From Rotaria magnacalcarata (lineage: Eukaryota): a stretch of 39,926 nt of DNA. A program made the position numbers and the translations under genes. Shown piece by piece: positions 4,517 through 28,380 of the stretch (position 1 is the first letter of the stretch; the number at the start of each line of letters is the position of its first letter). Where the stretch lies: positions 1 to 39,926 of the forward strand of contig CBCSLL010001219.1 in assembly GCA_965140935.1 (NCBI GenBank). Direction: 5' to 3'. The notes under the pieces are model-generated. The model was not told the origin of the DNA and did no database searches. It saw nothing but the letters and a program-made list of their open reading frames with translations.

Positions 4517-5572
4517 TTATCTTAAATAGCTTCCTTTAACTTGAGACAATCGATACAATCGATTGGTCCAAGATGAACAAATTTCAAAAACAACATTGAG
4601 AGAAACTTTACGAACAGCACGTTTCACTTCGTTAATTAATGTCGTTTTAGATGTTACTGCGTCCCAGTTAACTTGATGTGCGAGTTTGTCCCATATGCAG
4701 TAATCTAATGGGTTCAAATCAGGACTGCTTGGAGGCCCATGATCTTTGTCGATGAAGCATGGAAAGTGCTTTGCACACCATTCTTGTGATTTCGCATGAA
4801 TGCGTGACTTTGCATCGTCCTGCTGAGAGGTCCAATCGGCTCCAAACGTATCATGACCAAACTTGAGAGCAACCGGTAGGACCTCCTTGATGTATTGATC
4901 ATGGTCTACTGTCCCGTCCTCGAAAATGACTAAAGGTGATACACCTTTAAAACAAACTGCGAGCCAAACCATTACTTTTTGCGGAAACTTACGTTTTTGC
5001 CGAATACCACCGTTGGTATCAGCAGCTAAAAGATTAACCGCCCATATTCGACCGTTTTGAGAACTATAAATTCCGTCAATGTCGAACATCTTCTCATCAG
5101 AAAACAAAATTTTCATTGTGTTTTATTTTCGGAAGTTTGTTCGTATCCAATTAGCAAACTTAATTCTTTTTTCTTTATGCTCATTAGTGAGCAATGGTTC
5201 GTTTTGTATTTTCTAGGCTCGCAGTCCTAGATCATTTTTGAGTATTCGTCGAGCACTGGTCCTAGAAATACTCAACTCACGAGCTACTTTTCGTGATGAG
5301 ACAGGTTTCCGGTACTCCAGCAGATTTTTTACCTTTTGTATGGCTCCTTTCGTTCGAATAATTCGGTGACACCCCGATGGACTAGACAGGTTGATTGAAC
5401 CGGTATCGCGTATGTTTTTGCACCATCTTTCGATTGTCCGAAGACCGATTAAACCATTGAGATCGCGAAAAATTTTTGTCGGCCCATCACCACTTTGATA
5501 CTTTGAAAGTACCAAATTTTGAAAATCTTTACTTTTCATGAACACAAGTAAATCCAATGAAATTGAATTCAT
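4517..5572 (-). pseudogene. Tc1/mariner transposase (~346 codons) interrupted by two in-frame stop codons
   Basis: The two ORFs (5213-5572 and 4517-5116) lie in the same frame. The ~24 codons between them, bounded by a TAG and a TAA, read KIQNEPLLTNEHKEKRIKFANWIRTNFRK, the usual linker between the HTH and catalytic domains. N-terminal paired-like HTH: ...LSISRTSARRILKNDLGL. Catalytic motifs: ILFSDEK (first D), WTSQQDD (second D) and SPDLNPLDY (third residue is D, not E). By my count there are ~37 residues between the last two, a DD37D-like, maT/mariner-type signature. Confidence 0.85.
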
Positions 5573-6843: not shown

Positions 6844-9643
6844 ATGTGTTTATATGACTTTGTTAGCATATTCTATAAGAAAAAAATGAATTCTACAGAT
6901 CTGAAATATTTATCCAAGATAGCTGGATCAATAGAAGAAAAAATTAACCGAAAAGGTCGACCACCTAATGAACGATTTCTTTTTCAAAAGCAGCATCCTC
7001 AGGCTACAACCTATTTAATGATGAAGTACAGCGAATCTCATGTGCCTGTTCTCTATGGTCCTCAGATCCCTCGACAAGATCGTGATGATACTCGAGAACG
7101 ATATTGTCGGGCTATTCTCACACTTTTCGTACCCTGGCGTACTGTGACTGATATTTGTGACATCGGTCAGACATGGGAAGATACATTTAAATCTCGACAA
7201 CATCTTATTTTGAGACATTCATGGACGATAATAGAAAACATTCAACTTTTGCATGAATGCAAAAAGGACCGCGATGATCATTTACTTCAAGTTATCGCCG
7301 AAGCACAAACCGATAATAGCTTAGTCGATCCTGTACTAATACCGACTAATCAAGTCGATGGTGAATATGGCACTGATGACAGTGACGATTTAATTGAATT
7401 ATTAGGTAATTTGGATGAAAACACAGTTGCTATGCTCAATGCTACAAAAAACTCAACAGAAAACAGATATATTGAAGAAACAATCGAAGCAGTCAAGAAC
7501 GTCGGACGATTTAACAGTGTGAACAGTAAGTATTATTTGAATGTGATCTTTAGAATCGACAATAATCGTACAAAATTTGTTGTAGCATATGACCAATATT
7601 CTTTAAATGAACCGAGCGATCGTATCGATCAATCATTGGTACCATTTATTTCTGCAACACCTAATCTTGTTCGACTCAATGCAAAATGGCAAGAACAACT
7701 GAAAACTGAGAAAGAACAGATTAGAAGAGGTTTGATTACGGGCAACTTTGACAAAGACGATGATGGTATGTTGAACTTGGATGCTGCAAGAAGTGCCGTT
7801 GCCACTGTAGTGACTCTAAACAATATGAATATTAATACGAAGATATGCGAAAACTATGGTTCGATTCCTGCAGTAATATTAGTCAAAGCGAACTCTTGTA
7901 CTCAGAAGAGTGTTGCCGATGAATTTACACTGAACAGAGAACAACGGGCTGCATTTATGATCATAACAGGTCATCTTGATGGTGATAGCCGCTGTCGTAC
8001 AGGTAATCTTTATAATAGAAGTCATCACATATTGAAGTACATAATATTTTCAGGTGACAATAATGGTCAGCTTATAATGTGCATACCTGGATGTGGTGGT
8101 ACAGGCAAATCACAATTGATTCGTGCTCTTACCAAATACTTTTTAGTTACAAAGAGAATACAAATGATGCGGAAGTTAGCACCTACTGGTATTGCCGCTG
8201 CTGAAATCGATGGTATGACCATCCATTCGTTTTTGGGTGAACAGCGTAACTCAGGAAAGGCACGTACAATTAAACCAGGAGATTTAAAACTCGAGAAGGA
8301 ATGGGCCCTCGTTGAATACCTCTTAATTGATGAAATAAGTATGGTTGGTTTAACTCTACTTGCGAAACTCAACCGAATTATATGTGCTGCAAAACATACC
8401 GATCCTCAAGTTCCATTTGGTGGTGTAAATGTCATCTTCTTCGGCGATTATTTACAATATCGACCTGTATATGATGTACCTCTACATACAGATTTCACTT
8501 TGCCGGTCAAAAATAAATCAAACAAGATAGCAACTGAAAAACAAATTCAACAACGTGTTGCACGTTCTTTAATTCTTCAAATCAATTGTGTGGTCAAACT
8601 TACTCAACAGATGAGAACAGAAGATCTACGTTATCTTCAGCTACTCGAACGACTTCGTCATGAAGAATATGTAACTACGATGACTACGAATTATTGTTAA
8701 CACGAATAGTGGGGCAATCTTCCGTACCCTTGTTAAGTGATTCACCATGGAATAAAGTAAATTTGTTTTTCTAGATTTAGACAATTCACTATCTTCATCT
8801 TTTTAGGCTCCGATTCTTGTATTTCGTAACGAAATACGAACACAATTAAATCACAAGGCACTTAGTCACAAAGCACAACAAGTGGGACAGACACCTATAG
8901 TATGCATTGCCCAAGACACCTGCAAAGGCAAACTAATTGAAGATCGAGCACTTATTAAAAAATGATTAGAATTATCTGATAGTAAAACAGAGCATCTACC
9001 AGGTCTATTACCTCTTGTTCCTGGAATGCCTGTAATTTTAACGCAAAATATTGCAATTGAATTGGGTCTTATCAACGGTGTGAACGGAATCTTTCGGCAG
9101 CTTGTCTACCAGGAAGATTCCGTGTCAACTGATATTATTTCAGAAGAATTTTCCAAGAATGCACGATATGTCCATCGACCTCTGTACGCCTTGGTGGAAA
9201 TTAGCAAATCAACGATCGAATGCAATTTAGAACAACTTCAGCCAAAACTGATTCCAATACCGGTAATGGAACAAACATTTCGAGTCGATATAGGCGATAT
9301 GCTTCCAAAAGATAAGAAACCAAAATCAAATAGAAAAACACTGTTATCAATTAAACGGCGCGCATTACCACTTGTACCAGCTTATTGCATTACAACACAC
9401 AAGAGTCAAGGTCAAACATTGAATAAAGTTGTGATTGATTTAAAACTGCCAAATGAAACCGATGATATTGCTGCAGTCTATGTACCCTTATCGCGGGTAA
9501 AACGCTTAACTGATTTGTTTATTTTGCGATATTTTGATTACAAGGTGTTGTTAATTAAACCCAGCAAGTCACAACTGACAGAAATTGAACGACTCGATAA
9601 ACTATATTTAGAGACCCAAGCACGCTTTCCAGAATGGTTGTAA
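6844..9643 (+). pseudogene. PIF1-family (Helitron-type) DNA helicase, degenerate: one frameshift and one in-frame TGA
   Basis: ORF 6844-8700 carries Walker A (PGCGGTGKSQLIRAL), Walker B (LLIDEISMV), FGGVNVIFFGDYLQYRPV and QQMRTED motifs of PIF1/RecD-like SF1 helicases. After a frameshift, 8815-9025 reads ...QDTCKGKLIEDRALIKK*LELSDSKTEHLPGLLPLVPGMPVILTQN and is interrupted by a TGA. ORF 9026-9643 supplies the C-terminal helicase motifs (CITTHKSQGQTLNKVVIDL). I see no HUH Rep motif upstream. Confidence 0.8.
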
Positions 9644-11730: not shown

Positions 11731-11946
11731 TTAGTTATCGCCATGATCGATGCCGATAACTATACGTTGAATAAACATGTCCCATGATGAATCGCTCAAT
11801 TCTAATTGTTTACAATAGATACGATTACGTTGACTTATTTGTTGATAGAATCCGATCGCTTTGTCAAGTTTTTCACTTGTGTTAGCAGATAAATGATTGC
11901 AGAGAAAAGCCTTAGCAACATAAAGAGAGTAGGATATAAATTTCAA
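11731..11946 (-). CDS. exon-like segment resembling the vault-PARP (PARP4) C-terminal region
   Basis: KAIGFYQQISQ...CKQLELSDSSWDMFIQRIVIG resembles the human PARP4 C-terminal segment AFEAIKQASEW...RLELGNDWDSATKQLLG, from memory. I could not fit the splice phase to the upstream exon. Confidence 0.35.
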   Translation of the reverse strand: MKFISYSLYVAKAFLCNHLSANTSEKLDKAIGFYQQISQRNRIYCKQLELSDSSWDMFIQRIVIGIDHGDN

Positions 11947-11960
11947 AGATTGGAAAAAAT

Positions 11961-12096
11961 CAATTCACTTTGATTTGTTCAATGTTAAATAAAAATGGAC
12001 ACGTGTTTTGTGGTGAGTCTTGCATTTGAAGAGCGAGCCAAAACAGAATGACACCTGTACCAATTAAACGAAGAATTTCATTTTGTGTGTTCAAAG
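11961..12096 (-). CDS. exon (PARP4 C-terminal-like; ...SLG ALNTQNEILRLIGTGVILFWLALQMQD...)
   Basis: Acceptor ttttttttag at 12097-12098; 50-nt intron. Resembles PARP4 ...SLGVKGRECLLDLIATMLVLQFIRTRLE. The low-end boundary is uncertain. Confidence 0.45.
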
Positions 12097-12146
12097 CTAA
12101 AAAAAAATTAAAGGTCATATCTCTATAATAAATCTTACGATCTTAC

Positions 12147-12255
12147 CGAGCGAGTTAAAACCTAGTGCGCGTAAGTATTGTTCTAGGCCATCGAAAATAT
12201 CAACATTGACATGAAGTATATCAGCTAAATCTTTATTCAACGTAAATGAACCGTC
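12147..12255 (-). CDS. exon (DGSFTLNKDLADILHVNVDIFDGLEQYLRALGFNSL; the DGSW-type motif of the PARP4/VWA5A C-terminal region)
   Basis: Acceptor catag and donor gtaaga. 63-nt intron upstream, phase consistent. Confidence 0.5.
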
Positions 12256-12318
12256 CTATGTTCGAATCAAATGCAAAACAATGATTTGGTAATAAGACTT
12301 GAAAATAGTATCAATTAC

Positions 12319-12410
12319 CTCAGATTGAATTTTGATGAGCTCTTCAGTTAACGTTTTTGAAAATCGAACATTTTTCAGTTGAATGAGAAGTGGAGCACCA
12401 ATTGTTTGAC
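12319..12410 (-). CDS. exon (GQTIGAPLLIQLKNVRFSKTLTEELIKIQSE)
   Basis: Acceptor gaattcag and donor gtaatt. The reading phase matches the phase-1 end of the Hsp70-SBD exon at 12670. Confidence 0.45.
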
Positions 12411-12669
12411 CTGAATTCATACACCATTTTCGCTATATCTTTCAAACAACAACGAAGGACAAATTACCGAATGATGTTATAAGTTCACCGGAAAAGTCAC
12501 GTATTACAGATGTAATTTGGCCAGCCAGCTGAGAAAAACAGAAAAAGTGAACAATCGAACTATGAAAAGATGACATAATACGAACTAAATACAATCGATC
12601 ATTGGGTTTGTGATCATGAACTACAAAATAACAATAATTGAACATCATTTATCCTTTTTACACACTAAC

Positions 12670-12741
12670 CAGATTTAGCTGCAACATTTGCATCACTTTC
12701 TACATATGCAATATGTCGCTCAATATCATTTTTGCTCAATC
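12670..12741 (-). CDS. Hsp70-family substrate-binding-domain gene, exon 5 ([24 protein letters not shown])
   Basis: Matches Hsp70 GRLSKEEIERMV.EAEKYKAED. Donor GTTAGT at 12668-12669. Acceptor tatctag after the 58-nt intron 12742-12799. Confidence 0.7.
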
Positions 12742-12799
12742 CTAGATAAATATAAAAGGCATTTAGCGATGGTATGAAATATCTGAGTAATTGTCGAAC

Positions 12800-12968
12800 T
12801 TTGCTGATCAGATCCAAGAATAAACGAAGCTTTCGCGCCCGAACGTGCTTCTTCAGCATCGACATGAAGTATCCCATTAGCATCGATATCCATACGAATA
12901 GCTATTTCGAGTGTCTGAGCAGAGAAGTTGCTTGTTAGACCAGAAAGACTAAACTCGCCCAATAATCT
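12800..12968 (-). CDS. Hsp70-SBD gene, exon 4 ([11 protein letters not shown]...[37 protein letters not shown])
   Basis: Near-canonical Hsp70 SBD-beta: [50 protein letters not shown]. Exon length 169 = 56 codons + 1. Confidence 0.8.
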
Positions 12969-13022
12969 CTGCAATAGAGGACGATTAGAAAATAAAATTT
13001 ATGAAGTTAGAACACTATATAC

Positions 13023-13269
13023 ATTGTATTTTGTGAGATAATGTTCACCTTCAAATATTCGAATGGTAGCTGTTGTCTGATAGGCATAAGCATTTGTGAA
13101 TATAGGATAAAGTTGAGTTCGCGTTGGAATAACTGTATTACGGCGTACCAATGTATGCATCTCACCCTTAATATCTTCGATGCCCAGACCAAGTGGGCAT
13201 ACATCCAGAAGAAGTAGATTACAGACAGATATGTTGGACGTTAAATTAAGTGCAAATTGTCTTCGAAAT
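13023..13269 (-). CDS. Hsp70-SBD gene, exon 3 (FRRQFALNLTSNISVCNLLLLDVCPLGLGIEDIKGEMHTLVRRNTVIPTRTQLYPIFTNAYAYQTTATIRIFEGEHYLTKYN)
   Basis: LLLLDVCPLGLGIE matches the Hsp70 inter-domain linker plus SBD start, DLLLLDVAPLSLGIET. 54-nt intron 12969-13022 (gtatat..tgcag). Confidence 0.8.
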
Positions 13270-13372
13270 CTAAATTTTCATTTCGTTATCATTAAAAAGA
13301 AAGAGCCATCGATCGAAAATGACAATCAATAACGAATCATTGCATATCCTCGTCAAGCCTTTTAAAACTCAC

Positions 13373-13464
13373 GTCTCTAATTCTCTTGTCTGTTTACAAA
13401 TCGTGGATTTTGGTTGCGCACTTTCACGTGCAAAGTCTATCGTTCTATCGTCATATCGGTGCTC
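13373..13464 (-). CDS. Hsp70-SBD gene, exon 2 (EHRYDDRTIDFARESAQPKSTICKQTRELET); no Hsp70 ATPase motifs
   Basis: Donor GTGAGT. 103-nt intron 13270-13372 ending aatttag. Confidence 0.55.
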
Positions 13465-13512
13465 CTAAAATTGGATGATGTTTCTGTAAAACTTGCATTT
13501 TAATGTACGTAC

Positions 13513-13644
13513 TTTAGTGTATCGAACTGATTTTTTCGTTGACATATTCGCTTCTTCCGAGCTTTTTGATTCACTTGTAGCAACTTGTATGCTATCGTGT
13601 CTACCACCAAATGACGACATTTCTAAAGATGGTTCTATGTTCAT
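13513..13644 (-). CDS. Hsp70-SBD gene, putative first exon (MNIEPSLEMSSFGGRHDSIQVATSESKSSEEANMSTKKSVRYTK)
   Basis: ATG at 13642-13644 preceded by an in-frame TAA. Donor GTACGT, 48-nt intron 13465-13512, acceptor ttttag. No Hsp70 nucleotide-binding-domain motif (DLGGGTFD, GIDLGTT) found in any minus-strand frame up to ~14750. Confidence 0.5.
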
Positions 13645-14339
13645 GATCCATTAATTAAAGTAATCGAGAAATTTATGTGGTTCTAACTTACCAACACTTG
13701 GGTTCGGTTTTAATGCTATTGGAGATGGCATATAGCTGTCATTAGTGCAGGATGATAGTGTTCGACATGATATGTCTGGTGACAGTGGCTTGGGAAAAGA
13801 AAGAGAAGCCCATGCAGAAGTATCAGTGATAAGGCCGTAAAAATCGAATGGTTCTGCCAATTCAACGCCTAACATGGATAGCAAATCAGAACGTAGCATG
13901 TTTAACATGCACAGCTGACAACAAACTAATAAGGGTGCCGCACTTTGATAGCTCAATTTCTTACCATCGTTCTTTCTACTCCAGCAAAAGTATTTAAGAG
14001 AGTGCGAATGTAAGGGTAGATATACGTAACAGGAAGATTCACCGTTATTCACATTCATGTAAAGGTAATTTTCTGAACTTGTAAACTTCAGACTTTCGTT
14101 AGGGAAAGGTTAGCAATAATATGAATAAGAACACGAATATTACTTATCAGTGACAGTAGTCGAAACATAACATTTCTAACTTTTAATTACTTTTTGTAAA
14201 CTCGATGGAGTCTCAGTAACTCTGAATTTAAAATATCGGGCAAAAATCACTAAAACTCAATCAAATTCATAAATTGCTGTTTTCTTCTCGGAAATAAGTG
14301 TACAACATTCGGAACTCTTGATCGTATACAAACAACCTA

Positions 14340-14760
14340 TTATTCAAATCTTACTTGATTGTTTTGGAGGCGGTTCGAGTGATAGCCCTGATAGTGGCGC
14401 AGACAATGACCCTATAACGAATATAATGTAATAAGCTTGATAATAATGATGATCTTACCTCTCTTCTTCTTTCCTGCCAGTTTGTTATAAACAGTAGATA
14501 TTGGTACCGGTTGATCTTCTAATTTCGAAAATATATTAAGACCAGTCGGTTCTTTTAAGCGTTCATTTCCATTATCTAGAGTGGTCTTCCAAGTGGGAAA
14601 ATCATGACTCATCGGCGAAGGCCCACGAGTGTCTGTAAACCGAAGCGAAGGTAAATCGCCACTGAAACTATTGCCATCGCCAGCGTCAGTGCCCTTGCCC
14701 TTATCTGAATCAGCCTTTTCATATTCCTCTAATGATTCTTGTTGCAAACCACTTATTTTC
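14340..14760 (-). other. exon-like open segments (Ser/Gly/Pro-rich) bounded by GT/AG sites; gene unassigned
   Basis: ...LAGKKKR|gtaaga...ttatag|GSLSAPLSGLSLEPPPKQS|gtaaga. No family recognised. Confidence 0.25.
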
Positions 14761-15089
14761 GATCGGAATTCTGGTAGTTGCCATGCTAAAAAATACTACT
14801 GTCTAGAGAAGTGACACATAAAGTATTCATTTTTAATAAAAAACCAAACCATTACATCAAATTAATTACTCTTCCTCGCTGACTACAGCTGCAATAAACT
14901 ATAAAACATTATCACAGATACTCCAGTGCTAAATTAAATGTCTACATCATGCCAATCTACAAATCTCATATGTCAAAAAACAATTCGATATAAGAATAAT
15001 CCATATATGTCCCTGAAAAAATAGTTGAAGCTGATATTTTGAATATATTATCATGCTAAAAGTATATTTGTAAAAAGCCCACAATGGTT

Positions 15090-15350
15090 TCGACCCATGG
15101 CTCTTTCTTCAAAATTTATGGTCCTTTCACTGCATTTTTTGACCTATTCCTAGATATTTATTAAAAAAATCAAATTAAGCAAGTTCGATCTGAAACTTTC
15201 ACGATATTCTAAGAGTTCTTAGACTAATCCGTGGGCAAAGTTTCAGATCGAAATTGCTTAATTTTATCTTTTTAGTGCATACCTAGGAATAGGTCAAAAT
15301 TTCACTAAAAGGGGTATAACTTTTCAAAAGCCATGAACCAAAGCGCTTTT
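15090..15350. repeat. MITE-like imperfect palindrome (foldback)
   Basis: Nested inverted repeats: attaagcaagttcgatctgaaactttc / gaaagtttcagatcgaaattgcttaat, and tgacctattcctag / ctaggaataggtca. Confidence 0.6.
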
Positions 15351-16130
15351 GAGATTTTTACTACCGCTATATACTCTATCAAATGAGATATGAATGGTAC
15401 TTACGTGGATTATGTTCAATTTTTCCTTCTTCGAAGTCATCTGAGAAAACAGTTTTCTGAAAACTGCTAGAAGGCATCAAGATGGTGGAAAATAGGCTAA
15501 CTTGACTATGTTTTATAATTCAGATGAAATCTATCTGTGGTTTCCTGTATCTTGATGCATATCTTTTTTTTAATTTTGAGCTATTTTTGAACTGAAATGA
15601 AACAGCTAGTCGTTTAGCTCTACTTGAATTTCTCTCAGTTTCGCTTCGGTTCAAAATTTACGAACTCAAGCCATGGCCATCTCTGCTTCAAATATGCACA
15701 CAATTCTTTTCTCGGTCTTGCTATAAAACTGCGTTAAAGTGGAGTTTTTTTTATTAATGGAATCCCCATGTTGAATGTTACTTTCACAATAACTTATTCT
15801 CCCGTATTCACAACCAAACATATTCGTGTTTCGCTAACTGAAAACAATTACCGGATTTATGATGTAAGAGTCCTCAATAGGTACCTGACAGTAAGCAGGC
15901 AAAGGCACATATATCTATAAATAAGATGCTTTATGTTTACGCTAGTGAAACGTCGCTGCGAAATTGTCGTTTGTTTTTTCCTGAAGACGTTTCAGCAACT
16001 GAAATTTCAAACAGCCGCAATCTTATTCGTCAGAACTCCAACACTGAAAACCCGTAATTGGTTTAGATTCCAAGCTGGAATACTCTGATTGGACGAACGC
16101 TAGTCATCGAAGAAACCTGTACATTGTTCT

Positions 16131-16236
16131 TTAAATAGATCTTTGTTTGATCTTACCTCCATCAATATCAGCTTCTCGAATCATTTGATCAACTTCTTCA
16201 TCAGTGAGTTTCTCACCCAAACTTGTCATCACATTA
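16131..16236 (-). CDS. calmodulin-like gene, exon with EF-hand 4 region ([27 protein letters not shown]...)
   Basis: Matches calmodulin [28 protein letters not shown]. The donor gtaaga at 16155-16156 suggests a further downstream exon. If unspliced, the reading frame ends [12 protein letters not shown] at 16131. Confidence 0.7.
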
Positions 16237-16287
16237 CTTTTAAAGAAGAAGCAGAATAAGTATATTTTTATGTTAGTTTTTTCCTTA

Positions 16288-16539
<252 letters not shown>

Positions 16540-16709
16540 TTATAAGTGTGAGCGTCTATGTTGAATTAAAAGATAGAATTTTTTTTCTTCTTAAAATGAT
16601 CAAAACGCATAAACCAAGTCAGAGGAAAAGGGTACATAAGGGCCGATTTTGGATCATTGCCATTTTTCGTTCATTCATGGTTTATCTGATGGAAAATTTT
16701 TGACGATTC

Positions 16710-17522
16710 TGCTCACACAAAAATGAAGTGGTTTTGGCACATTTGGACCCGTTTTCTACTAGAAATATTGAGTTCATTTTCTACAGTAAAAGTGCACAAT
16801 TCGTACGTGATTCGTTGACCCCTACGAAGTTTTGTGGACAATATTATTATGAAATGAAAATCCTATCAATTAATTGTTTACTATCAGTTTAATCTCTGAT
16901 AAAAATTTCTGGCCATTCCTTCTTACTCTTTTTGCTATATCACGAGACAGAAGAAAAACAGCATGGGTTTTTAATTGATTCTGAAAGTCTGGGAGATAAG
17001 CTACAAAATCATATGTTTTTCAATTATTTTAGCAATGAATTTTGATTACTAGTGTACTCTAAGTTCAGTTAAACCTAATTTCTAGTATTTGTATTGGATT
17101 ATCTGGGAGATTCTGATCATAAAAGGTGGCACGTCCATCAAAATTAATTACAGATTTGGAATCAGCGTTGTCAGTTATCTAGTTCAGTATATCTTTCATA
17201 CTTCCGTTTTAAAATGTTTTTTTTTCGTCGGATATTGACATGAGGAAGCTCAAAAACGAGAATTCTTTTAAAACACAATCTTCCATTATGATTATGATCT
17301 CCATCGTCTCCATGAATTCCATCTCTGATCAAGAATTCGTTTTGTGTGGTAAATTCCTCTCTCTTTCAATCTGTATCTTGACGAAAAATGCATATTGTTT
17401 TCTTCTCTCTTGAGATATTGCAAAAAAAGAGTAAGAAGGAATGACCAGAAAGCTTTATCACAGATTGAACTGATAGTAAACGGGTCCAAATGTGTCAAAA
17501 CCACTTCATTTTGGTGTGAACA
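16710..17522. mobile_element. ~0.8-kb non-autonomous TIR element (MITE-like) inside the calmodulin intron
   Basis: 16710-16762 tgctcacacaaaaatgaagtggttttggcacatttggacccgttt pairs with revcomp of 17471-17522, tgttcacaccaaaatgaagtggttttgacacatttggacccgttt. That is a ~45-bp TIR with 3 mismatches. No coding capacity between the TIRs. Confidence 0.65.
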
Positions 17523-17637
17523 GAATTGGTATAAAATTCTGCATCACATAAACCATGAATTGATGAAAACTGCCAATAACCCAAAGTCCACCGTTGTGGG
17601 CCACCATTCTGTACTATTTGATTGGTTAAAAACTTAC

Positions 17638-17715
17638 CATCGGCGTCAACGTCATTGATCATATCTTGCAATTCAGCTTCAGTTGGATTTTGACCAAGAC
17701 TACGCATCACCGTAC
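17638..17715 (-). CDS. calmodulin-like gene, exon ([25 protein letters not shown])
   Basis: Identical in pattern to calmodulin 27-56. Acceptor cactag, donor gtaagt. The 1207-nt intron to the next exon contains the TIR element. Confidence 0.9.
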
Positions 17716-17766
17716 CTAGTGAATATTTAGGTAGATACATATCTAAAAAACTGAAGAATTTCATAC

Positions 17767-17863
17767 CAAATTCTTTTATTGTAATTGTTCCATCACCATC
17801 TTTGTCAAATAGAGAAAAAGCTTCTTTAAATTCGGCAATTTGTTCTTCTGTCAATTGATCAGC
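17767..17863 (-). CDS. calmodulin-like gene, exon ([32 protein letters not shown])
   Basis: Calmodulin residues 2-33 ([32 protein letters not shown]). Preceded by the acceptor ttttag, as in calmodulin genes with an intron right after the initiator codon. Confidence 0.9.
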
Positions 17864-18005
17864 CTAAAATGAATAATACTTAGGGGTACACAAAAGTTTT
17901 TCTATGCCGTTTCATCCCTATTCAACTGATATCATAATAATAAAATTTCAACAGGAATTGTTGTTATTGAAAATTTAACAAATACTTAAAGCAGATTAAA
18001 TTGAA

Positions 18006-18062
18006 GGTGTGGATGTGGGTGTCGGCATGCGCTGAAAAAGACATACCCACACCCACACCCCA
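18006..18062. repeat. telomere-repeat-like hairpin
   Basis: ggtgtggatgtgggtgtcgg - 20-nt spacer containing gcatgc - cccacacccacacccc. Confidence 0.75.
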
Positions 18063-18822
18063 TTCCTATTTGATTTATTATGCTTATAGTCCGGAAGACC
18101 TTGTATCAGCAAGGAATCAATAGATCTCTTAAAAGAAGTTGATTGTTTCTCTATAGAGACATGTTGTGAAGTCTCTTCTTTCGAAATACATACATCTTGT
18201 ATTTATATCAATCAAAGCCATCCTTTTCTTAATAAACTGTTCCTTTTTCCCTTTCAAATATTTACACCAGTTTTGAGAAAAACCATCAGATTTTTATATA
18301 AGATTACCCTGAATAAAGCTCAATTTTGCTTTTAATCACTAAATCATGTTACTTCACAGATCAATAATTACATCTAAGCACTATCAATGCTGCCTTTTAT
18401 TTAATATTATCCTGAAACATGTGTATTTTGTAGCGAAAGATTTATCTGACGTCAATATAGATTCTTTGTTGATTTTGGCACCACCCACGAATCGCCCGCA
18501 GTTTGATGTTTTGTGCTCTATTGTTTACCATACTCTTTCTACAACAACGGCTTAGCATCGGAATCAATATCAACTCAGCTGCATAAAGTATTTTGGAGAT
18601 ACGTTTACTGCGAACGAAAGACCCTTATAGGAAAATTTGTTTGCCAGTCAAGGTGTAGCTGTGGTGATGATCCCTCTTTCACTCACGCACCTTTATCTTC
18701 ATGTTATCTGTAGTTGGAAATTGGTTTTAAGGTATTGTTGAGAGGTTTTATGTTGCTGTTGATATAAATAATTCATCAATAAAATCGGGTGCTCATCATC
18801 ATTGTATAACTAGCTTTCTTAC

Positions 18823-18884
18823 CTTATCCATTTGTTCAACTGTTGTTAAATCCTTGGAATCAGCTCCAAGCATACGAATCAAAT
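18823..18884 (-). CDS. candidate upstream exon (DLIRMLGADSKDLTTVEQMDK), phase-compatible with the calmodulin exon at 17863
   Basis: Acceptor ttttcatag and donor gtaaga; phase 0 at the donor. Assignment to the calmodulin-like gene is inferred only. Confidence 0.3.
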
Positions 18885-19287
18885 CTATGAAAATGAAATA
18901 TAAACATTTCTCTGAAAACCACCTACACGTTTTCAACGCGGTATTCATTGTGATGATCTTAACATGTTCTACTCAGTATAGGTCGGGGTTTAAATTTAGA
19001 CTATATAATTCTTTCAAAACATCCAAGTGGTTCCATTTAATGTCACTTCACCGAAGCTTTCTACCACCGTTTCCGAAGTAGAATGACCGAGTTTCCTTCT
19101 TACCATCGTATTTAATTAATGATCCGCTGCAAGAGAAAGGATACACGAAATAATTTTTAAATGTTTCTTTCCTTTCTTTCACTTACAATTCGTCATTTGT
19201 GATTATTAAATTGTTCGCTAGACATTGTTGCTGTAATGCTTGCCGTTCTTCTACGGTTGCACTAATCATTTCGGTCATTATATCTAT

Positions 19288-22200
19288 TCATTTTTTAAAT
19301 TCGATATATGTAGATTTTGGTCCTAGATCAATTAGCATACCCTTTTGCATTTTATCTTTTAGTTCATCTGCTTTATCGTAATCATTCAATGAATGTCGAT
19401 ATGTGCGTATGATAGCCATCATGATAGCAAATTTCGCATCACCACCTGCTCGATAGGAAACTTTTTGACAAAGTTTTTCAATATCAACAATTGTTTCTTT
19501 TTTGCCCTGAATCGATGCACATTCCAGTGAAATACGCGCATCGGCCAATTTCTGTTTGATTGAAGTCAAATTTGAAACATCACCATCCCATCCCATGCAT
19601 GGTAGTAAGTCAACATCGCGTTCCAGCATAACTTCAAGCAAACGAACACCTATAACAGAGAGTACATGTTTCAATAGTGATGTAGATACTTCAATTTTGG
19701 TGCTAGTAAGATTTTTGATCCATAGTGTAAGAAACATACAGATAAATTTTTGCTTTTCTGCTATTATTTTACTAACCTGGTTGAACAGTTTTTATATCCG
19801 TGTTGACATCACGTTCTTCGATGGCAACAAAACTAGTGTATTTACTGACAACAGAATGTTTGATGCTGAGATCGATGAGATCTCGTTTGTATTGAACTTT
19901 GATCAATTCGTTTTCGCTCTCGTCGACATCCAATAGCCCGTTGTCATAATCATCAATAATCGCTCGAGTGGTTAGACAGTGTAAAATACGTCCTCTGGTC
20001 GTTGTCATTGCACTACTAAATACAGTCGTAACAAATTCTTGTTCGTCAATAGTAGCCGCCAATGTTGCCTTGTGACAATTTTCTATGAATCGATAAACAG
20101 TAAGTCGCATTCCATTGAACAAAGATCGAATCATTTTCGGTGCTTGCATATTGAGTTTTTGCTCTTTATTCAAACAGCCATGCCAGTCGATTGATATATT
20201 TGTAACACACGGTTGTCGAATCTGTTCGAGGATGTTAAATACTTTTGTTTTCCACTTCGATCGATAGTTTGAATCGAATACTATTGTTAGACCACCTCCA
20301 TTTGCTCCATTAGCTAACTGTTTCAAAACATGTTTGTTTGCAACGTTACCAATTGAGCATGTAAACAAACGATCACGACGCATAGTTGGTCGATGTTTGA
20401 GTAGAGCCAGAATTGAATTGAGGTCGTGAATATGTCCATCGGATAAAAGAACGATTTGACGGCCAAATTTCGACGATAACGACGATCGTAATAACGAATA
20501 ACGTTGAAGGACAGCAAATAGATCCGTATTACCACGATGGACACGTGAATGCTAGAATTTATGAAAACGGATATTTCAATAGAAAAATCAGATTCAAAAA
20601 AATAAACTACTAACTAGAACAAAGTGTTTGGCTTTATCGAGATTTTCTTTTGTAGTTGGTGCTGACATAGGAAAACATTCATCGTTATCTAAATAGTTGC
20701 AATTTCAATAGTAAAATAAATGTAGATCCTAATACTATATGTACTTCAAAAAGTAACTAGGCTGATTACGATGACCCAGCCTAATTATCTAGACTGATCA
20801 TTTTTTTAGCCCGTAAAATTCTCTATCGAACGGTATATATCACGTCGCATGGGTCAAGGCGATCCATTAGATCTTCGTGACTGTGCAAAATCTTGTAATA
20901 TTTAGGTGCCTGTTTCTGAATCTCAGAAACCAAGCTGAGATAGCTTACCTTTGTGTATGACTTAATATACTTCACTATAATATTTCAATTGATTTTCATA
21001 ATATAGTACTAGAGGACCAAAAAGTGCGTCCACGTAACCTGGATAGGCCAATGTTCCCATAGAGAAAACGAAGGCAATAATGACATTTTTTAGTATAACT
21101 CACTGCGAATCATTGTCATCCTCGAACTTGCTCGAAATATTGATGAGACGATTCTGTGTGCGAAATTTCATCAAAATCAAATGATATTTTGAAAGAGTTA
21201 TAGTGTTTTGAATGCGCAATAACGCTGTAGAATATCATCTTATTACCTGATCCAAAAGTAATTACATTAAAATATGTATTCTCATCTTCAACTTTCAAAT
21301 TCGTAAGAAACAAATGAGCTAACTGTTTAGCTTGCTGTACGTGACTGCCATCCATTGAATTTGATAGATCAACAATGAAAATAATTTCAACTTGTTCTTT
21401 CGAAGTCGTCAATGTTTCGAATCGTGGATAAAAGGTAAGCATACATGTTTGAGATTGATGGCTGTTCGATGTGTCAGTTGTTTCACTGTTGTCATCCAAT
21501 GGCAATGTTTCATTTGCTATTCGCGGTAAATTAGGACTGTTGAGTGTGATCGAAAGAATAAAATCTTGATCAATTAAGACATTATCAACAAGTTCAATCA
21601 TAGCTATACAATCGGTTACTTTCCGACGTAGATGATGTGTTGGGGAAAATAATTTCGTTATTTTATAGGGCATTCGAATCGATGCTTTGAAACTGAATTC
21701 AACTTTTTCATCGACAATACCGATAGATCGTAAAATCGATTGATCTTTGGTTTCGACAGCTTTTTTCGATTGCCATGAAGTCATTTTGGTTGGAAGGCGA
21801 AAAATAATGTCATCATTTTCGATTTCTAATTCGGCAACATAAATTATTTTGATGATAACTTCAGTATGCGCTGGCAAATTACCAACCGCAACGCTGAACA
21901 CTTGAGCTTCTTCTTGATGCATTAAATAGGCGCCATGACCCTTTTCAATTGCTTCTCTATACTCGCGTTTGGCTTGTTCTTTCTCTTTAACGACACCTTT
22001 GATAACTTTATTGTTAATATGTGCTTCGAAACCGCATACAGTTGAATTTTCATCAAGAGGAAACACATACTTAGCTTCGATAGGTATCGAACTTGTATTA
22101 TGATAGACTTGATAGAGAACAACCTTTTCATTTGATAGAAACATGAGGAATTAGTATTTTACTTCAATCGAAACGTAGATATAATTACTTCAACTGTAAC

Positions 22201-24696
22201 ATCAACAATTTGAGCACGAATATGAAATGATTTAAGTGGTACAAGGTCTCTCGATGATGAACATATCAAACCATAGTCTTGTTCGGCTACTTCAATGATT
22301 TCATCCTCCATCGTTAATGGAACTTCAGCTAGAATATTTTGAGAAAAATTTAGTCAATTGTTTATTCCAACAAGAAATCATAGCTTATCATTACCGTGCT
22401 CACTTAATTTCAATGCATGTTCTTGATGGTGAACAATAGGTAATCGTTCTAAAGTGATACTGAGAGCATCAATCGGCGACCATGAAACTTCCACAACATA
22501 AAGTAAACGTTGTTGTTCAACTTGATAGATGGCATATTCATTATCCTATTTCGATCGAACACAAAGTAGATTTGTGAAATAGTATCATAATTAATAAATC
22601 CTTCTAGCATTTCACTTACAGTGAACTTTGATTGATTTTCTTCTGTTTGTTTGACTCCATGTGTACTATGAAAACCATCAGGAGGTTTGGTGAGAGTCGG
22701 CGAAAACAAATAATAATTGGCTGATTCACCAAGTGCTACTTGACAAATGCATAACAAACGACGACCTGGCCGTATTCTACTTGCTGTCGTATATTTCAAA
22801 GACGTCGAAGCAGAATCTGAAAAATAGATCCCATAACCGAGACAACCCACGTCAGTACGTTCAACGCCCAATTGCTCCACTACAATTTTAGGCATGACTA
22901 AACCACTAAACGTACGCACAACCGCCATATAAATGTTGTCTAGAGAACGAAATGAGTATTTTACCGTGAAAGAATCCCAAGAAAATTGACATATTTCGAT
23001 CCATGAAACAGCTGCCATTGGTGGGAGAGTGTTGTACGAAAATTGAGTGCATCTGTCTGTCTAGTCACACTGAATATGTTGTGAATTAAAATTTCTTCAC
23101 CACTAATAAACAAAAAACAATCATTATGAAATAGAATGTTAAATTCTCTCGCCTATTAGTCGACGACTGAATGAGCTTAGCAATATTCTTAAAGTCGAAT
23201 GTTGAACTCGCTACTGTTTCAATATGACATTTCAATGCTCGATATTTAGCTTCGATTGGTGCTTTAACATTCCAATTGGTCAGTTCGTTGACTGTATGCA
23301 TATCTCGAAGCATCTGAACGGGGAAAAGATCAAGTAAAACAATTTAAAACAAGATTGACATACCTGACATAGGTCTATTTTTTCGATCAACGCTCGATGA
23401 TTCTTGATTAGATCAATATTGTACTCTGGTCGATGTGGTATAAGTGAATAGAAACGAAGTGCAGCAGCAGGATTGTTGGTCGCTTTGAGTTCGAGTAGTG
23501 CAGCTTCGGCCTCAATGATCTATTTGGATGTTTAGAACACACAGTAATATGAAAGTGTACACATACTGTTTTGAGAGTAATCGATTCAGGTGATATGCTC
23601 AAAATTTTATTCAGATCACCAATCGATTCTAGCCAAATCGATTCAATCAATTGACATACATTTTCATCGAGTATTTGTGTGTCGATACGTTGTGTAAATA
23701 AAGACTAGAAACAATTTCTTTTATGTGTAAAAACTAAATTATATTCTTTTATCAATGTCATTTGCATACACGTAATAATAATTTTGATCCTAATTTGTTA
23801 GGTAACATCTCACTAATTCGTGTTATACGTGGCATTGCAGCCACACGATAATAGTACGACGCAAACAACTGTTGTTGTTCGTTTGGATCATCACTGAATG
23901 CGTATTGTACCAATACTTTTTTATCGTGTTGTGAAACTTCGTCGGTAATAGTCTGTTTTTCATATCGAAATCGTAGTTGATAATCACTCGTTGTTCGATC
24001 ATAGTACTCTTCGGGAATAACTTGAAGTTCAAGAACAAAAAATACACTTGAATTATCATTGGTTTCCTGTTATGAACAATAGAAATATAAGAGAATAACA
24101 GCTAGAAATGAATACAAATCTACTTTGAAAATCGCCCATCTGCCAAGCTCACAATGTGCCAGCTCATCGAAACGAGGCAAATTTACATCGTCCGAATTCC
24201 ACAGTTTGATTTTAGTCAAATCAAATCTATTGGTTTTAGTCACGTTTGTTCGAGTTTCTAATGAACATCTAATACCTCCCATGGAAATAGTGCCAGTTTT
24301 TACAAAATTTTCTTGGTCTTCTGCTGACTTGATAATAAATTTGCTAATATCAATAGGTGTTTGACCAGGTCGCAAACAACGACATTTGTGTACATATTCA
24401 ACATTCACTACCGGTAAGCCAAGCCGTTTGGCACGACGTATTTTGTAGCTATCTACATTAGTCGTAGTTAGAACATAATCAGTCTAAAAGAAAGGTAACT
24501 CCAACCACATGTTTGATGAAATAACACGCGAACATACACTGGCTGTCAAAATATACGAAATATGTGCTTGCTGTTCTCGTAAATAATTGATCAATTCTTG
24601 CTTAGCTTTGAAACCTATTTCATGGCCAAGTTCGAGTACAATGTTTTTGCCATTGAATGGTGATAATAATGAAGTAGAGGTAGTAGCTGGTTTCAT
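19288..24696 (-). CDS. multi-exon PARP4-like (vault poly-ADP-ribose polymerase-like) gene: BRCT-like N-terminus, PARP catalytic domain, VIT, VWA, and a long C-terminal region
   Basis: All domains are collinear on the minus strand; see the sub-features. Exon/intron boundaries are not fully resolved. Confidence 0.75.
19772..20570 (-). CDS. PARP4-like gene, VWA C-terminal half and post-VWA region
   Basis: RQIVLLSDGHI (TDG-type MIDAS motif) ... ANGGGLTIVFDS. Then LSIKHSVVSKYTSFVAIEER, typical of VIT-VWA proteins. Confidence 0.7.
21116..22144 (-). CDS. PARP4-like gene, VIT domain plus start of VWA domain
   Basis: VIT: SSIPIEAKYVFPLDENSTVCGFEAHINNKVIKGVVKEKEQAKREYREAIEKGHGAYL. VWA MIDAS: EIIFIVDLSNSMDG. 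The VIT start exon (VPLKSFHIRAQIVDVTVE) is at 22200-22330. Confidence 0.85.
   Translation of the reverse strand: MFLSNEKVVLYQVYHNTSSIPIEAKYVFPLDENSTVCGFEAHINNKVIKGVVKEKEQAKREYREAIEKGHGAYLMHQEEAQVFSVAVGNLPAHTEVIIKIIYVAELEIENDDIIFRLPTKMTSWQSKKAVETKDQSILRSIGIVDEKVEFSFKASIRMPYKITKLFSPTHHLRRKVTDCIAMIELVDNVLIDQDFILSITLNSPNLPRIANETLPLDDNSETTDTSNSHQSQTCMLTFYPRFETLTTSKEQVEIIFIVDLSNSMDGSHVQQAKQLAHLFLTNLKVEDENTYFNVITFGSGNKMIFYSVIAHSKHYNSFKISFDFDEISHTESSHQYFEQVRG
22449..23018 (-). CDS. PARP4-like gene, PARP catalytic-domain exon
   Basis: GYGIYFSDSASTSLKYT...RRLLCICQVALGESANYYLF...DGFHSTHGVKQTE...INYDTISQIYFVFD aligns with the PARP signature GKGIYFAD..SKSANYC...LLLGEVALG...NEYIVYD. The upstream alpha-helical regulatory region is at 23086-23650 (ALRFYSLIPHRPEY). 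Confidence 0.8.
   Translation of the reverse strand: MAAVSWIEICQFSWDSFTVKYSFRSLDNIYMAVVRTFSGLVMPKIVVEQLGVERTDVGCLGYGIYFSDSASTSLKYTTASRIRPGRRLLCICQVALGESANYYLFSPTLTKPPDGFHSTHGVKQTEENQSKFTVSEMLEGFINYDTISQIYFVFDRNRIMNMPSIKLNNNVYFMLWKFHGRRLMLSVSL
24484..24696 (-). CDS. PARP4-like gene, N-terminal BRCT-like exon
   Basis: SPFNGKNIVLELGHEIGFKAKQELINYLREQQAHISYILTA has a BRCT-like pattern. Weak. Confidence 0.45.
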   Translation of the reverse strand: MKPATTSTSLLSPFNGKNIVLELGHEIGFKAKQELINYLREQQAHISYILTASVCSRVISSNMWLELPFF

Positions 24697-25122
24697 CTGA
24701 AAATAATCAATGATTTATGAATCAATCTACGAACGTATCCATTTTATATGATCGATTTTCAATAGAATCGTGTGATAACTAATGTGGTTACGCGTTACTT
24801 CATGCAAAGGAAAAGAGAAAAAAACAAGGAGTAGACAAATGTTGTTCATATATTTCTTTTCAGTTCTGCACGTTGAGTTATTGCACAAGCTGCTGAAATA
24901 GTCGGTATACCATGGAAATTTTCATACTTCATGAAGCTCAACATTAATGCATTTTATTATGAACGTCGTCGCTAATTGTCCCATATCATGAAAACCAGAA
25001 GAATGTGAATCTTAATGTAGCGCTTAAACAACTATAAAGATATAGTTGTTAGGTGGCCATGAAAATAAAAGGTTTTCAGAAAACATTTTCTTCTTTCAAA
25101 CTTTGTAGAGCTCTCTTTGTCG

Positions 25123-27208: not shown

Positions 27209-28380
27209 GTTTCGATGTAGTTGAAATCGGTGGTGACCTAGAACATTTTTTATCGACAAGCCCAGAAGGAATCGAGCTCCGACGGAATCCAAGTATTTTA
27301 AAAATGGGATTAGTAAAACGTATATTTCAACCAGTGATTGAAGAATGGTTTAATGGAATTCTGTCTGGTGTAAAAGACGCTGATTTAATTGTTCTAACAG
27401 TTGCATCTATTTTCCCTGGATTAAGTTGTATTGAGAAATTTCCTAATATTAAAGCAATTGGAATCTACACATTCCCAGTGATACGAACAGTTCATTTTTC
27501 GCCGCCTGGTTTAGGTGGGAAAAGTGGTAGTTTGTTCAAGTGGGCCAATTTATTGAAATGGAAAATAGTCGACTATGCTATGTCAAGCATCTATAATGAT
27601 AAACTCAATGAACTTCGTGCCACTAATGATTTACCACCAATGAAATTAAATTATGAACGTATGACTCAATTCCTGTTTCGTAAGCCATTGGTATCTGCAA
27701 CGATCTATTCCAAATATTTAATACCATGTCCATCCGATTGGCACGAAAATGATCATATGGTCGGTCCAATACTTGAAAAAGAAAATGAGAATTTTCAACC
27801 GCCAACTCCTATTCTTGACTTCTTGACCAAATGGAAAAACGAGAAGATTATCTATGTTGGTCTTGGATCAATGATGGGTACCATGTTTGGAGCAGATGAA
27901 CAAATGGAATTTATACGCAAAATTTTATTGGCTCTTGATAGAAATAATTGTAAAGCAGTTATGTCATTAGTTGGATTTAAAAGCGCAGATGCCAGTACGT
28001 TATCCACAGCTGATAATATATTTTATTTGACACATGCCATTCCACATTCTTGGTTATTTATTTATATGTCAGCAACAATTCATCATGGTGGTGCCGGTAC
28101 TACACATGCAAGTCTTTGGTATGGATTGCCTACATTAGTATTATCTTTTGGAGCCGATCAACCATTTAACGGTGATCGAATATTTATCAATAGATTAGGA
28201 CCAAGATCTATTTCCATACGTCACACCAATGTGAAGAATTTAACTAATGCAATTCGTGATCTTATGATTGACAATTATAACATTTATAAAACCAGTGCTA
28301 AAAAGATTAGCGAATTAATTAAAAATGAAGATGGACTTAGTCATTGTGTTCGTCTTATAGAAGCAGAACTAGCAGAATAA
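27209..28380 (+). CDS. GT1-family UDP-glycosyltransferase, exon 2 (sterol 3-beta-glucosyltransferase / bacterial MGT-like)
   Basis: 146-nt intron 27063-27208 (gtaagt...ttattcag) joins in phase: ...KAAG|FDVVEIGGD. C-terminal donor-binding signature SATIHHGGAGTTHASLWYGLPTLVLSFGADQPFNGDRI is the HHGGAGT...DQ motif of UGT51/UGT80 sterol glucosyltransferases and bacterial macrolide-type GT1. It is not the animal UGT HCGANG signature. Confidence 0.85.

Follow-up and report, generated by a model that had tools for sequence, protein, structure and literature searches.

Does the vault-PARP (PARP4)-like gene on the minus strand of contig CBCSLL010001219.1 of the bdelloid rotifer Rotaria magnacalcarata end at the TGA where the initial annotation closed it, and are its catalytic residues intact? 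The window analyzed here is this whole stretch of 39,926 nucleotides (nt), an AT-rich eukaryotic DNA (~35% GC) with short introns, in which a complete gene had been placed at 19288-24696, between the start ATG at 24696 and an in-frame TGA at 19290-19288. The gene model used below was obtained by splicing exons by hand, and it was verified by translation and by comparison with orthologue proteins, using tblastn of annotated orthologues; the boundary of exon 12 was set from the orthologue models. In this model the coding sequence extends ~7.6 kb beyond the TGA and has 21 further exons until a TAA, so that the gene taken as complete covers 14 of the 35 exons (exons 1-14) and 62% of the coding sequence. 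We consider it likely that the locus is one long minus-strand gene (24696-11731) whose 35 exons encode a member of the vault-PARP (PARP4) family of bdelloid Rotaria with 2151 amino acid residues (aa). The features needed to follow its first part are:

24696..11731, minus strand: whole PARP4-like gene as modeled, 35 exons, 2151 codons and TAA (11733-11731)
24696-19341, minus strand: exons 1-14, aa 1-1336, with BRCT, helical domain, ADP-ribosyltransferase domain (ART), VIT, VWA and a helical region after VWA
19340-19284, minus strand: intron 14, 57 nt, GTATGC..GAATAG, phase 1, which holds the TGA

All 34 introns of the model show GT-AG boundaries: 29 have 47-127 nt and five are long, with 486-1371 nt. 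No stop or frameshift was found within any of the 35 exons and all the splice sites are intact. Introns among exons 1-14 have 47-127 nt plus one of 558 nt. The latter is intron 11 (20689-21246), which splits the VWA domain and whose first 150 nt are open in frame; together with intron 23 (13869-14354, 486 nt) it is unusually long, the other introns being mostly ~50-75 nt. The donor of exon 6 is ambiguous and could be the GT at 23164, the GT at 23167 or the GC at 23152 implied by the protein model P0002; the three share one phase and all lie away from the catalytic triad. The full-length model is 97.8% identical to the R. socialis model P0001, and its identity to P0005 of R. magnacalcarata is 99.9 and 98.2% across two aligned blocks. 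The top database matches are models named 'Poly [ADP-ribose] polymerase' from R. socialis and R. magnacalcarata (97-99.9% identity), followed by other Rotaria and Adineta.

Intron 14 begins after AAG G, ends before AT ATA ATG ACC, and is like the other introns of the gene in its length and splice sites. Its splicing yields the sequence ...DELKDKMQK followed by DIMTEMISATVEERQALQQQC.... An intron of 57 nt is found in the same position in two Rotaria loci, L003 (R. magnacalcarata) and L004 (Rotaria sp. Silwood1), and one of ~60 nt in the locus of A. steineri (L002); all three copies carry an in-frame stop. Furthermore, L001, a metagenomic contig of 905 nt belonging to a related bdelloid, is clearly genomic, as shown by its retention of intron 15; it has neither intron 13 nor intron 14 and shows a single open reading frame (ORF) across the junction (...GKVQIDIMIEMINATAEERQALQQQC..., ...DKADELEGKVQIDIMIEMINATAEERQALQQQCLTNN). 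The peptide encoded after the stop is conserved in every bdelloid paralogue read. Given the conserved position of an intron with stops, the continuous ORF of L001 and the conserved peptide after the stop, the TGA at 19288 is predicted to be removed by splicing. The initial annotation had already noticed open in-frame sequence after the TGA and suggested that the stop could be bypassed in this way, and the comparison agrees with it on both points; no conventional gene end is found at this place. The strong downstream acceptor that it mentioned is present (TTGCAG at 19127) but belongs to the next intron, the relevant acceptor being located at 19284, right after the TGA.

If intron 14 were retained, the product would end at the TGA, with 1353 aa finishing in ...KGMLIDLGPKSTYIEFKK; it would contain BRCT, ART, VIT and VWA, and be devoid of the calmodulin-derived, Hsp70-derived and vault-docking parts described below. 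A retained-intron ORF with its stop at the same place is found in genomic contigs of many relatives (e.g., ...GMFIDLEPKYTYIEFEK and ...GILVDLEPKYAYIQFEK, each followed by the stop), all Rotaria copies of the intron have 57 nt, a multiple of three, and a short isoform is compatible with the available data, in which no transcripts were found. However, the frame inside the intron is not kept, since L003 has an extra, earlier TAA, frame and length are altered in A. steineri, and other contigs end in GMLVNLR or GMFIHRRQIFNLKNK. Moreover, L001 has a continuous ORF, the downstream exons are conserved, and a PARP4 ending at the TGA would orphan the tail that docks to the major vault protein (MVP). We regard this shorter product as unlikely.

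Insertion of selenocysteine, or another read-through, at the TGA was also considered, and it is ruled out by the extra TAA in L003, the frame change in A. steineri and the deletion of the segment in L001.

Downstream of intron 14, the model contains the following parts:

18823..19283, minus strand: exons 15, 16 (a 23-nt micro-exon) and 17, linker DIMTEMISATVEERQALQQQCLANNLIITNDEFGSLIKYDDLIRMLGADSKDLTTVEQMDK
16157..17863, minus strand: calmodulin-derived module, exons 18-21, aa 1398-1529 (Pfam EF-hand_7 E 8e-31, EF-hand_1 E 1.5e-29)
13373..14785, minus strand: exons 22-26, aa 1530-1787, low-complexity linker of ~260 aa
12686..13241, minus strand: Hsp70 substrate-binding beta domain, exons 27-29, aa 1798-1945, including the LLLLDV interdomain linker
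11773..12345, minus strand: tail homologous to the PARP4 MVP-interaction domain, exons 32-35 (in a tail region of exons 30-35), aa 2005-2138

The far end of the gene carries the sequence that defines a PARP4 C-terminus. The last 135 aa match residues 1572-1700 of bat PARP4 (BLASTP E 4e-9), and the only significant sequence match of the tail in PDB is human PARP4 1574-1699, with an E value of 0.005 for the single sequence and of 4e-5 for a five-sequence profile. In human PARP4, MVP is bound through this region. By homology, the tail would be the MVP-interaction domain of the rotifer protein, provided that exons 15-35 share one mRNA.

The calmodulin-derived module has intact Ca2+-binding loops in EF-hands 1-3, while EF-hand 4 reads DIDGAWQLPEFR and is cut after DIDG, where exon 21 is joined to exon 22. 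No stop codon belongs to the module itself, and a three-frame translation of the 1371-nt intron 21 and the other long introns found no remnant of the last calmodulin exon. The exon structure of the module and the codon at which it is truncated are the same in A. steineri. Furthermore, the sequences that flank the insertion (...QLPTTDNM... and ...CPWQHVL...) are contiguous in an A. vaga paralogue without calmodulin (P0022). The segment AWQLPEF was considered as a remnant of the calmodulin QVNYEEF and rejected, as the PWQ motif is also found in the calmodulin-less paralogues P0022 and P0020.

A single gene is thus supported by the position of the PARP4-defining tail, located where a PARP4 gene should end, and by a calmodulin module that cannot terminate by itself and whose truncation falls on the same codon in Rotaria as in Adineta. 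A. steineri shows the same exon order in a compact gene of 8.7 kb with introns of mostly 50-100 nt, and the locus of Rotaria sp. Silwood1 is collinear. This evidence for a single gene is comparative. The micro-exon keeps its length of 23 nt across the window, L001 and L002, and the segment DI.TEM..AT.EE.Q.L of the first linker, which is helical, is kept in all bdelloid paralogues read.

Codon comparison with Silwood1 and A. steineri, respectively, gave ratios of nonsynonymous to synonymous substitution rates (dN/dS) of 0.20 and 0.15 in the PARP4 core, 0.17 and 0.34 in the calmodulin module, 0.68 and 0.28 in the Hsp70 substrate-binding domain (SBD), and 0.51 and 0.40 in the tail; the linker of exons 15-17 ranges between 0.31 and 0.35. 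At the level of codons, the comparison is indicative of purifying selection in the calmodulin module, SBD and tail. The linker of exons 22-26 is near neutral (0.93 and 0.83), its frame being open regardless, with exon 22 alone having 109 codons. No Pfam match was found in this linker, which is probably disordered and shares motifs such as RFT..R.S..SHD with the A. steineri model P0020.

Several observations weigh against one long gene with all these parts. Long introns of 959, 1207, and 1371 nt flank the calmodulin exons of the window, and the cassette formed by exons 17-21 has 459 nt, so skipping it keeps the frame and its inclusion is not forced; we infer that it is included constitutively. 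Public annotation is inconsistent: the parts are joined in the models of R. socialis, R. magnacalcarata, A. steineri and A. vaga, but the Silwood1 annotation has the Hsp70 part as a separate gene of 229 aa, one R. sordida annotation has a separate EF-hand protein of 394 aa (P0192), and P0002 stops within the calmodulin region, its contig ending ~360 nt beyond. A protein search for transcripts across the exon 14-18 junctions gave genomic read-through ORFs or predictions only; that for the junction between calmodulin and exon 22 was swamped by calmodulins and no transcript-derived sequence was found, and two degenerate junction patterns gave 0 matches in metagenome and metatranscriptome contigs. 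The SBD shows relaxed constraint in relation to Silwood1, with the dN/dS of 0.68 given above. Finally, the AlphaFold model of the tail (predicted local distance difference test score, pLDDT, 73.5; predicted template modeling score, pTM, 0.78) showed no PDB fold match below E = 1, a result that speaks neither for nor against its homology to PARP4.

Some of these points would fit a locus in which gene predictors stitched together two or three adjacent genes of the same strand, PARP4-like, calmodulin-like, and Hsp70-SBD plus tail. Besides the split annotations of some species and the long introns between the blocks, a calmodulin ATG in exon 17 followed by the typical calmodulin intron, in A. steineri and Silwood1, indicates that the module began as a whole gene. 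Against it, in addition to a calmodulin module deprived of its stop and last exon at one and the same codon in both genera, and to the contiguous motifs of A. vaga P0022, the first Met of the SBD block falls within the domain, the phases of all the junction exons are conserved, including the 23-nt micro-exon, the A. steineri gene is compact, and the MVP-docking tail is a feature of PARP4 in other animals. We therefore find separate genes quite unlikely.

An additional exon, 17b (...IRKLCTMLGEVPDF...PTTDNMKIT), is intact in Silwood1 (L004 15664-15850) and is included in R. sordida protein models. Relative to Silwood1, its counterpart in the window (18690-18822, minus strand) has lost 60 nt and carries two in-frame TAA, which destroy it, and that of L003 (16396-16590) is broken by a frameshift. 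Both the window and L003 show a new strong donor, AAG/GTAAGA (at 18822 in the window; the slash marks the splice site), where Silwood1 has AAG ATA AGA, and this donor cleanly splices out the dead segment. That this copy, one of a family of dozens, is a decaying paralogue whose 3' half is turning into a pseudogene would agree with the damage to exon 17b, the foldback repeat and other long insertions in the introns, and the relaxed constraint on the exon 22-26 linker (0.93) and on the SBD, but it is highly improbable in view of 35 exons free of stops and frameshifts with intact splice sites, a dead segment cleanly removed by a strong donor that the sister species L003 shares, and dN/dS values of 0.17-0.51 relative to Silwood1 in core, calmodulin module and tail.

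The second part of the question concerns the catalytic residues of the one long gene that we favor. The initial annotation read INYDTISQ at the position of the catalytic glutamate, could not place the histidine of the HGS motif, and suggested an enzyme that might be a mono-ADP-ribosyltransferase or inactive. The positions that decide it are:

23005-23003, minus strand: catalytic His, H453 (LFHGS), opposite LLHGS of human PARP4
22826-22824, minus strand: catalytic Tyr, Y493 (GYGIYFSD), opposite GSGIYFSD of human PARP4
22539-22537, minus strand: catalytic Glu, E564 (DNEYAIY), third codon of exon 9, opposite DDEFVVY of human PARP4
22619-22546, minus strand: intron 8, 74 nt, GTAAGT..AAATAG, skipped by all orthologous protein models

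INYDTISQ is the translation of intron 8, and the suspected defect arose because this intron was read through as coding sequence. Exon 9 opens with GAT AAT GAA TAT GCC ATC TAT, which encodes DNEYAIY. In the HMMER alignment to human PARP4 the H-Y-E triad is intact, with each residue opposite the corresponding motif, and the histidine is found in LFHGS. An intact triad in a profile alignment is what the initial annotation had named as a refutation of its reading. Nothing in the sequence suggests an inactive enzyme. Whether ADP-ribosylation is poly or mono cannot be read from an intact triad; human PARP4, with the same triad, is named mono-ADP-ribosyltransferase in PDB entries.

The PARP4 architecture proposed for exons 1-14 was confirmed. 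The domains of this core, from the N-terminus, are:

24382..24663, minus strand: BRCT, aa 12-87, spanning intron 1 (Pfam E 8.5e-5)
22480..23689, minus strand: helical (regulatory) and ADP-ribosyltransferase domain, aa 278-583, exons 4-9
21839..22236, minus strand: VIT, aa 643-753 (Pfam VIT E 1e-35, VIT_2 E 1.3e-15)
20300..21385, minus strand: VWA, aa 905-1059 (Pfam E 7e-11), broken by introns 11 (558 nt) and 12

Pfam matches on the core include VIT, the PARP catalytic domain (E 2.6e-23) and VWA, in an order that goes far beyond chance, and the motif of the metal ion-dependent adhesion site (MIDAS, DxSxS) in VWA reads DLSNS. PARP_reg gave a weak match (E 2.4e-4), under its cut-off. Nevertheless, the nearest solved structures are all PARP4: in a phmmer search of PDB, aa 278-583 match 8sx1 (chain residues 13-326), a crystallized construct with the helical and ART domains of human PARP4, with E 7e-57, and full-length PARP4 with E 2e-55, and PARP2 (9e-20) and PARP1 (7e-15) are far weaker, in the range of 1e-19 to 1e-14. 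Non-rotifer protein matches are also all PARP4, from fishes, turtles, mammals, molluscs, sea urchin and Hydra, with E values of 1e-165 to 1e-200. Identity to vertebrate, mollusc, sea-urchin, and Hydra PARP4 is 33-39% over up to 98% of the part encoded by exons 1-14. Judged from these matches, the domain architecture is real and not a chance pattern.

Support for BRCT is weak. The N-terminus scanned alone (aa 1-115) gives 23.2 bits against a Pfam cut-off of 21.3, and pairwise BLAST of the N-terminal 272 aa with bat PARP4 was not significant, so the assignment relies on the Pfam profile. The N-terminus is collinear with those of mussel, Hydra, fish and bat PARP4, and all ten aligned PARP4 N-termini show a BRCT match. 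Pairwise homology between the helical region after VWA and sea-urchin PARP4, sought across the exon 14/15 junction, was not significant. Every feature of PARP4 (PARP clade 5) that can be assessed in a sequence was found: the H-Y-E ART, the helical domain, BRCT, VIT followed by VWA, the MVP-interaction tail, and nearest relatives that are PARP4.

The module of exons 18-21 is, as estimated by eye, ~85-90% identical to residues 2-133 of canonical calmodulin, in agreement with its strong EF-hand Pfam scores. Nevertheless, the module does not qualify as a calmodulin: canonical calmodulin is a free protein of ~149 aa with four EF-hands, and here three loops and a truncated fourth are inside a protein of 2151 aa. 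In A. steineri and Silwood1, exon 17 ends in ...ATG/GT, a calmodulin start codon followed by an intron. Animal calmodulin genes typically have an intron directly after the start codon. Since exon 17 matches this intron position, a whole calmodulin gene copy most likely landed in a PARP4 intron and became exonized. The synonymous divergence (dS) between the Rotaria exons 18-21 and Adineta L002 4980-5584 is 0.19, vs. 0.69 in the PARP4 core, which suggests that codons or nucleotides are strongly constrained here, or that gene conversion took place with the canonical calmodulin gene.

The introns of this module show further particularities. Repeats within the long introns of the window probably explain their size. 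Intron 19, for instance, contains a foldback element of ~960 nt (16635-17598) in which inverted repeats are nested, their arms having 58-66 nt and 77-91% complementarity; this element probably accounts for the 1207-nt size of the intron. A separate 63-nt hairpin is found in intron 21 (15137-15299). Intron 18 (17716-17766, 51 nt) has no in-frame stop and is retained in P0005, where it adds residues between EF-hands 1 and 2, and in P0001 a part of intron 19 is treated as coding sequence; A. steineri backs neither variant.

In the Hsp70-derived part, the Pfam HSP70 match (E 4.7e-27) covers solely model positions 376-519 of 599, and the PDB alignment covers residues ~384-523 of BiP/Hsc70 (E 1e-26). 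Hsp70 proteins such as Hsc70 and BiP have an ATPase, an SBD and a lid, while the rotifer protein has neither nucleotide-binding domain nor lid. It is not an Hsp70, and with no ATPase domain and no lid this part is predicted to be unable to run the chaperone cycle.

Compared with human and other vertebrate PARP4, the rotifer protein shows BRCT, helical domain, ART with H-Y-E, VIT, VWA, a long linker, and a C-terminal MVP-interaction domain in the same order. The difference is in the linker between VWA and the tail, which is disordered and proline-rich in vertebrates and holds the calmodulin-derived module and the Hsp70 SBD in the rotifer, with sequence identities limited to 33-39%. Among the 120 best matches, the bdelloid sequences form 42 clusters at 90% identity from about seven species, and the Hsp70 and EF-hand Pfam domains are confined to bdelloid entries; proteins with 14-3-3, actin and ubiquitin Pfam domains are also among these matches. 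Most animals are reported to have a single PARP4 gene (PMC4245714); in bdelloids the family is expanded. Perina et al. (2014, PMC4245714) described PARP4-like proteins to which 14-3-3, actin, or ubiquitin-like domains are appended, in amoebae, Capsaspora, lancelet, sea urchin and others. As in those proteins, a core of PARP, VIT and VWA gained an extra signaling or protein-binding domain in a lineage-specific manner; however, that survey reports neither calmodulin nor the Hsp70 SBD, and its additions are C-terminal, whereas here they are internal, upstream of the docking tail (PMC4245714).

The same bdelloid subfamily and Pfam combinations are found in another genus, in FUN_013713 and FUN_002086 (Hsp70), FUN_024910 (EF-hand pair), P0022 and P0026 of A. 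vaga; P0022 and P0026 show 67-73% identity and are devoid of the calmodulin module. The A. vaga paper labels such genes 'PARP' (one 'HSP') and does not discuss a chimeric architecture (PMC10809525). We found no paper that describes the combination, which is present in supplementary tables and automatic database entries. The rotifer protein is a lineage-specific variant of the known PARP4 family and otherwise an ordinary, intact member of it. Rotifer annotations of the locus conflict with each other, and some expression studies class such genes as 'HSP' or as generic base excision repair PARP ('BER PARP').

What PARP4 does in vaults is not yet clear (PMC4245714), and the presence, between enzyme and vault anchor, of a Ca2+ sensor and of a domain that binds chaperone clients leads to testable ideas about it. 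In A. vaga, the PARP+VIT+VWA+Hsp70 models FUN_013713 and FUN_002086 are induced 2.5 h after X-rays, with log2 fold changes of 4.5 and 1.8, as is the PARP+VIT+VWA+EF-hand model FUN_024910 (2.1); five MVP genes are also induced (PMC10809525). Of the vault components that the initial annotation proposed to look for, the literature thus documents MVP in a sister genus. In bdelloids, PARP, MVP and 'von Willebrand factor' genes are found together among those induced by radiation and desiccation (PMC10809525). By analogy with these A. vaga relatives, which respond to irradiation and desiccation, a stress response is the most likely setting for the rotifer protein. In such a setting, the tail would tether the protein to vault particles, as its homology suggests, and the ART domain would ADP-ribosylate targets using NAD+. 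The calmodulin unit could make the conformation, or the interaction with a partner, dependent on Ca2+, and the ATPase-less SBD might hold extended hydrophobic peptides, from unfolded clients or from an internal segment of the protein. Taken further, bdelloid PARP4 proteins might be stress-induced, vault-tethered sensors, those of this subfamily responding to Ca2+ through calmodulin and capturing unfolded proteins through the SBD, with the clients brought to vaults, or ADP-ribosylated at them, during recovery from desiccation or irradiation. This is a speculative and unlikely proposal; if true, it would give vault PARP one of the few molecular functions suggested for it that can be put to the test.

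At the 5' end of the gene, TTTTCAG (24697-24703) abuts the start ATG and resembles a splice acceptor. Trans-splicing is known in bdelloids, and this motif may correspond to a 5' untranslated exon located further upstream or to a spliced-leader trans-splice site. An Rfam scan of the window gave no match.

Other genes are found around the locus. Two long ORFs on the plus strand, 6844-8700 (618 aa) and 9026-9643 (205 aa), code for a helicase like PIF1 (Pfam PIF1 E 2.7e-22) of the type carried by Helitron-type transposons. Two adjacent minus-strand ORFs at 4517-5572 (119 and 199 aa), with a weak homeodomain-like helix-turn-helix match and a DDE-like C-terminal part, both marginal in Pfam, look like a remnant of a Tc1/mariner-type transposase. 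An intronless ORF of 358 aa (27304-28380, plus strand) shows glycosyltransferase signatures, with an EryCIII-like C-terminal domain (E 6e-10) and UDPGT (E 1e-4). Horizontally acquired genes are common in bdelloids, and this ORF may be one of them. Finally, ~8 kb upstream of the orthologous PARP4 gene of L003, the neighboring gene called at 1234-2580 combines TPR repeats with a weak Pfam match to ADPrib_exo_Tox, which would make it another candidate ADP-ribosyltransferase in the vicinity, unrelated to the first.

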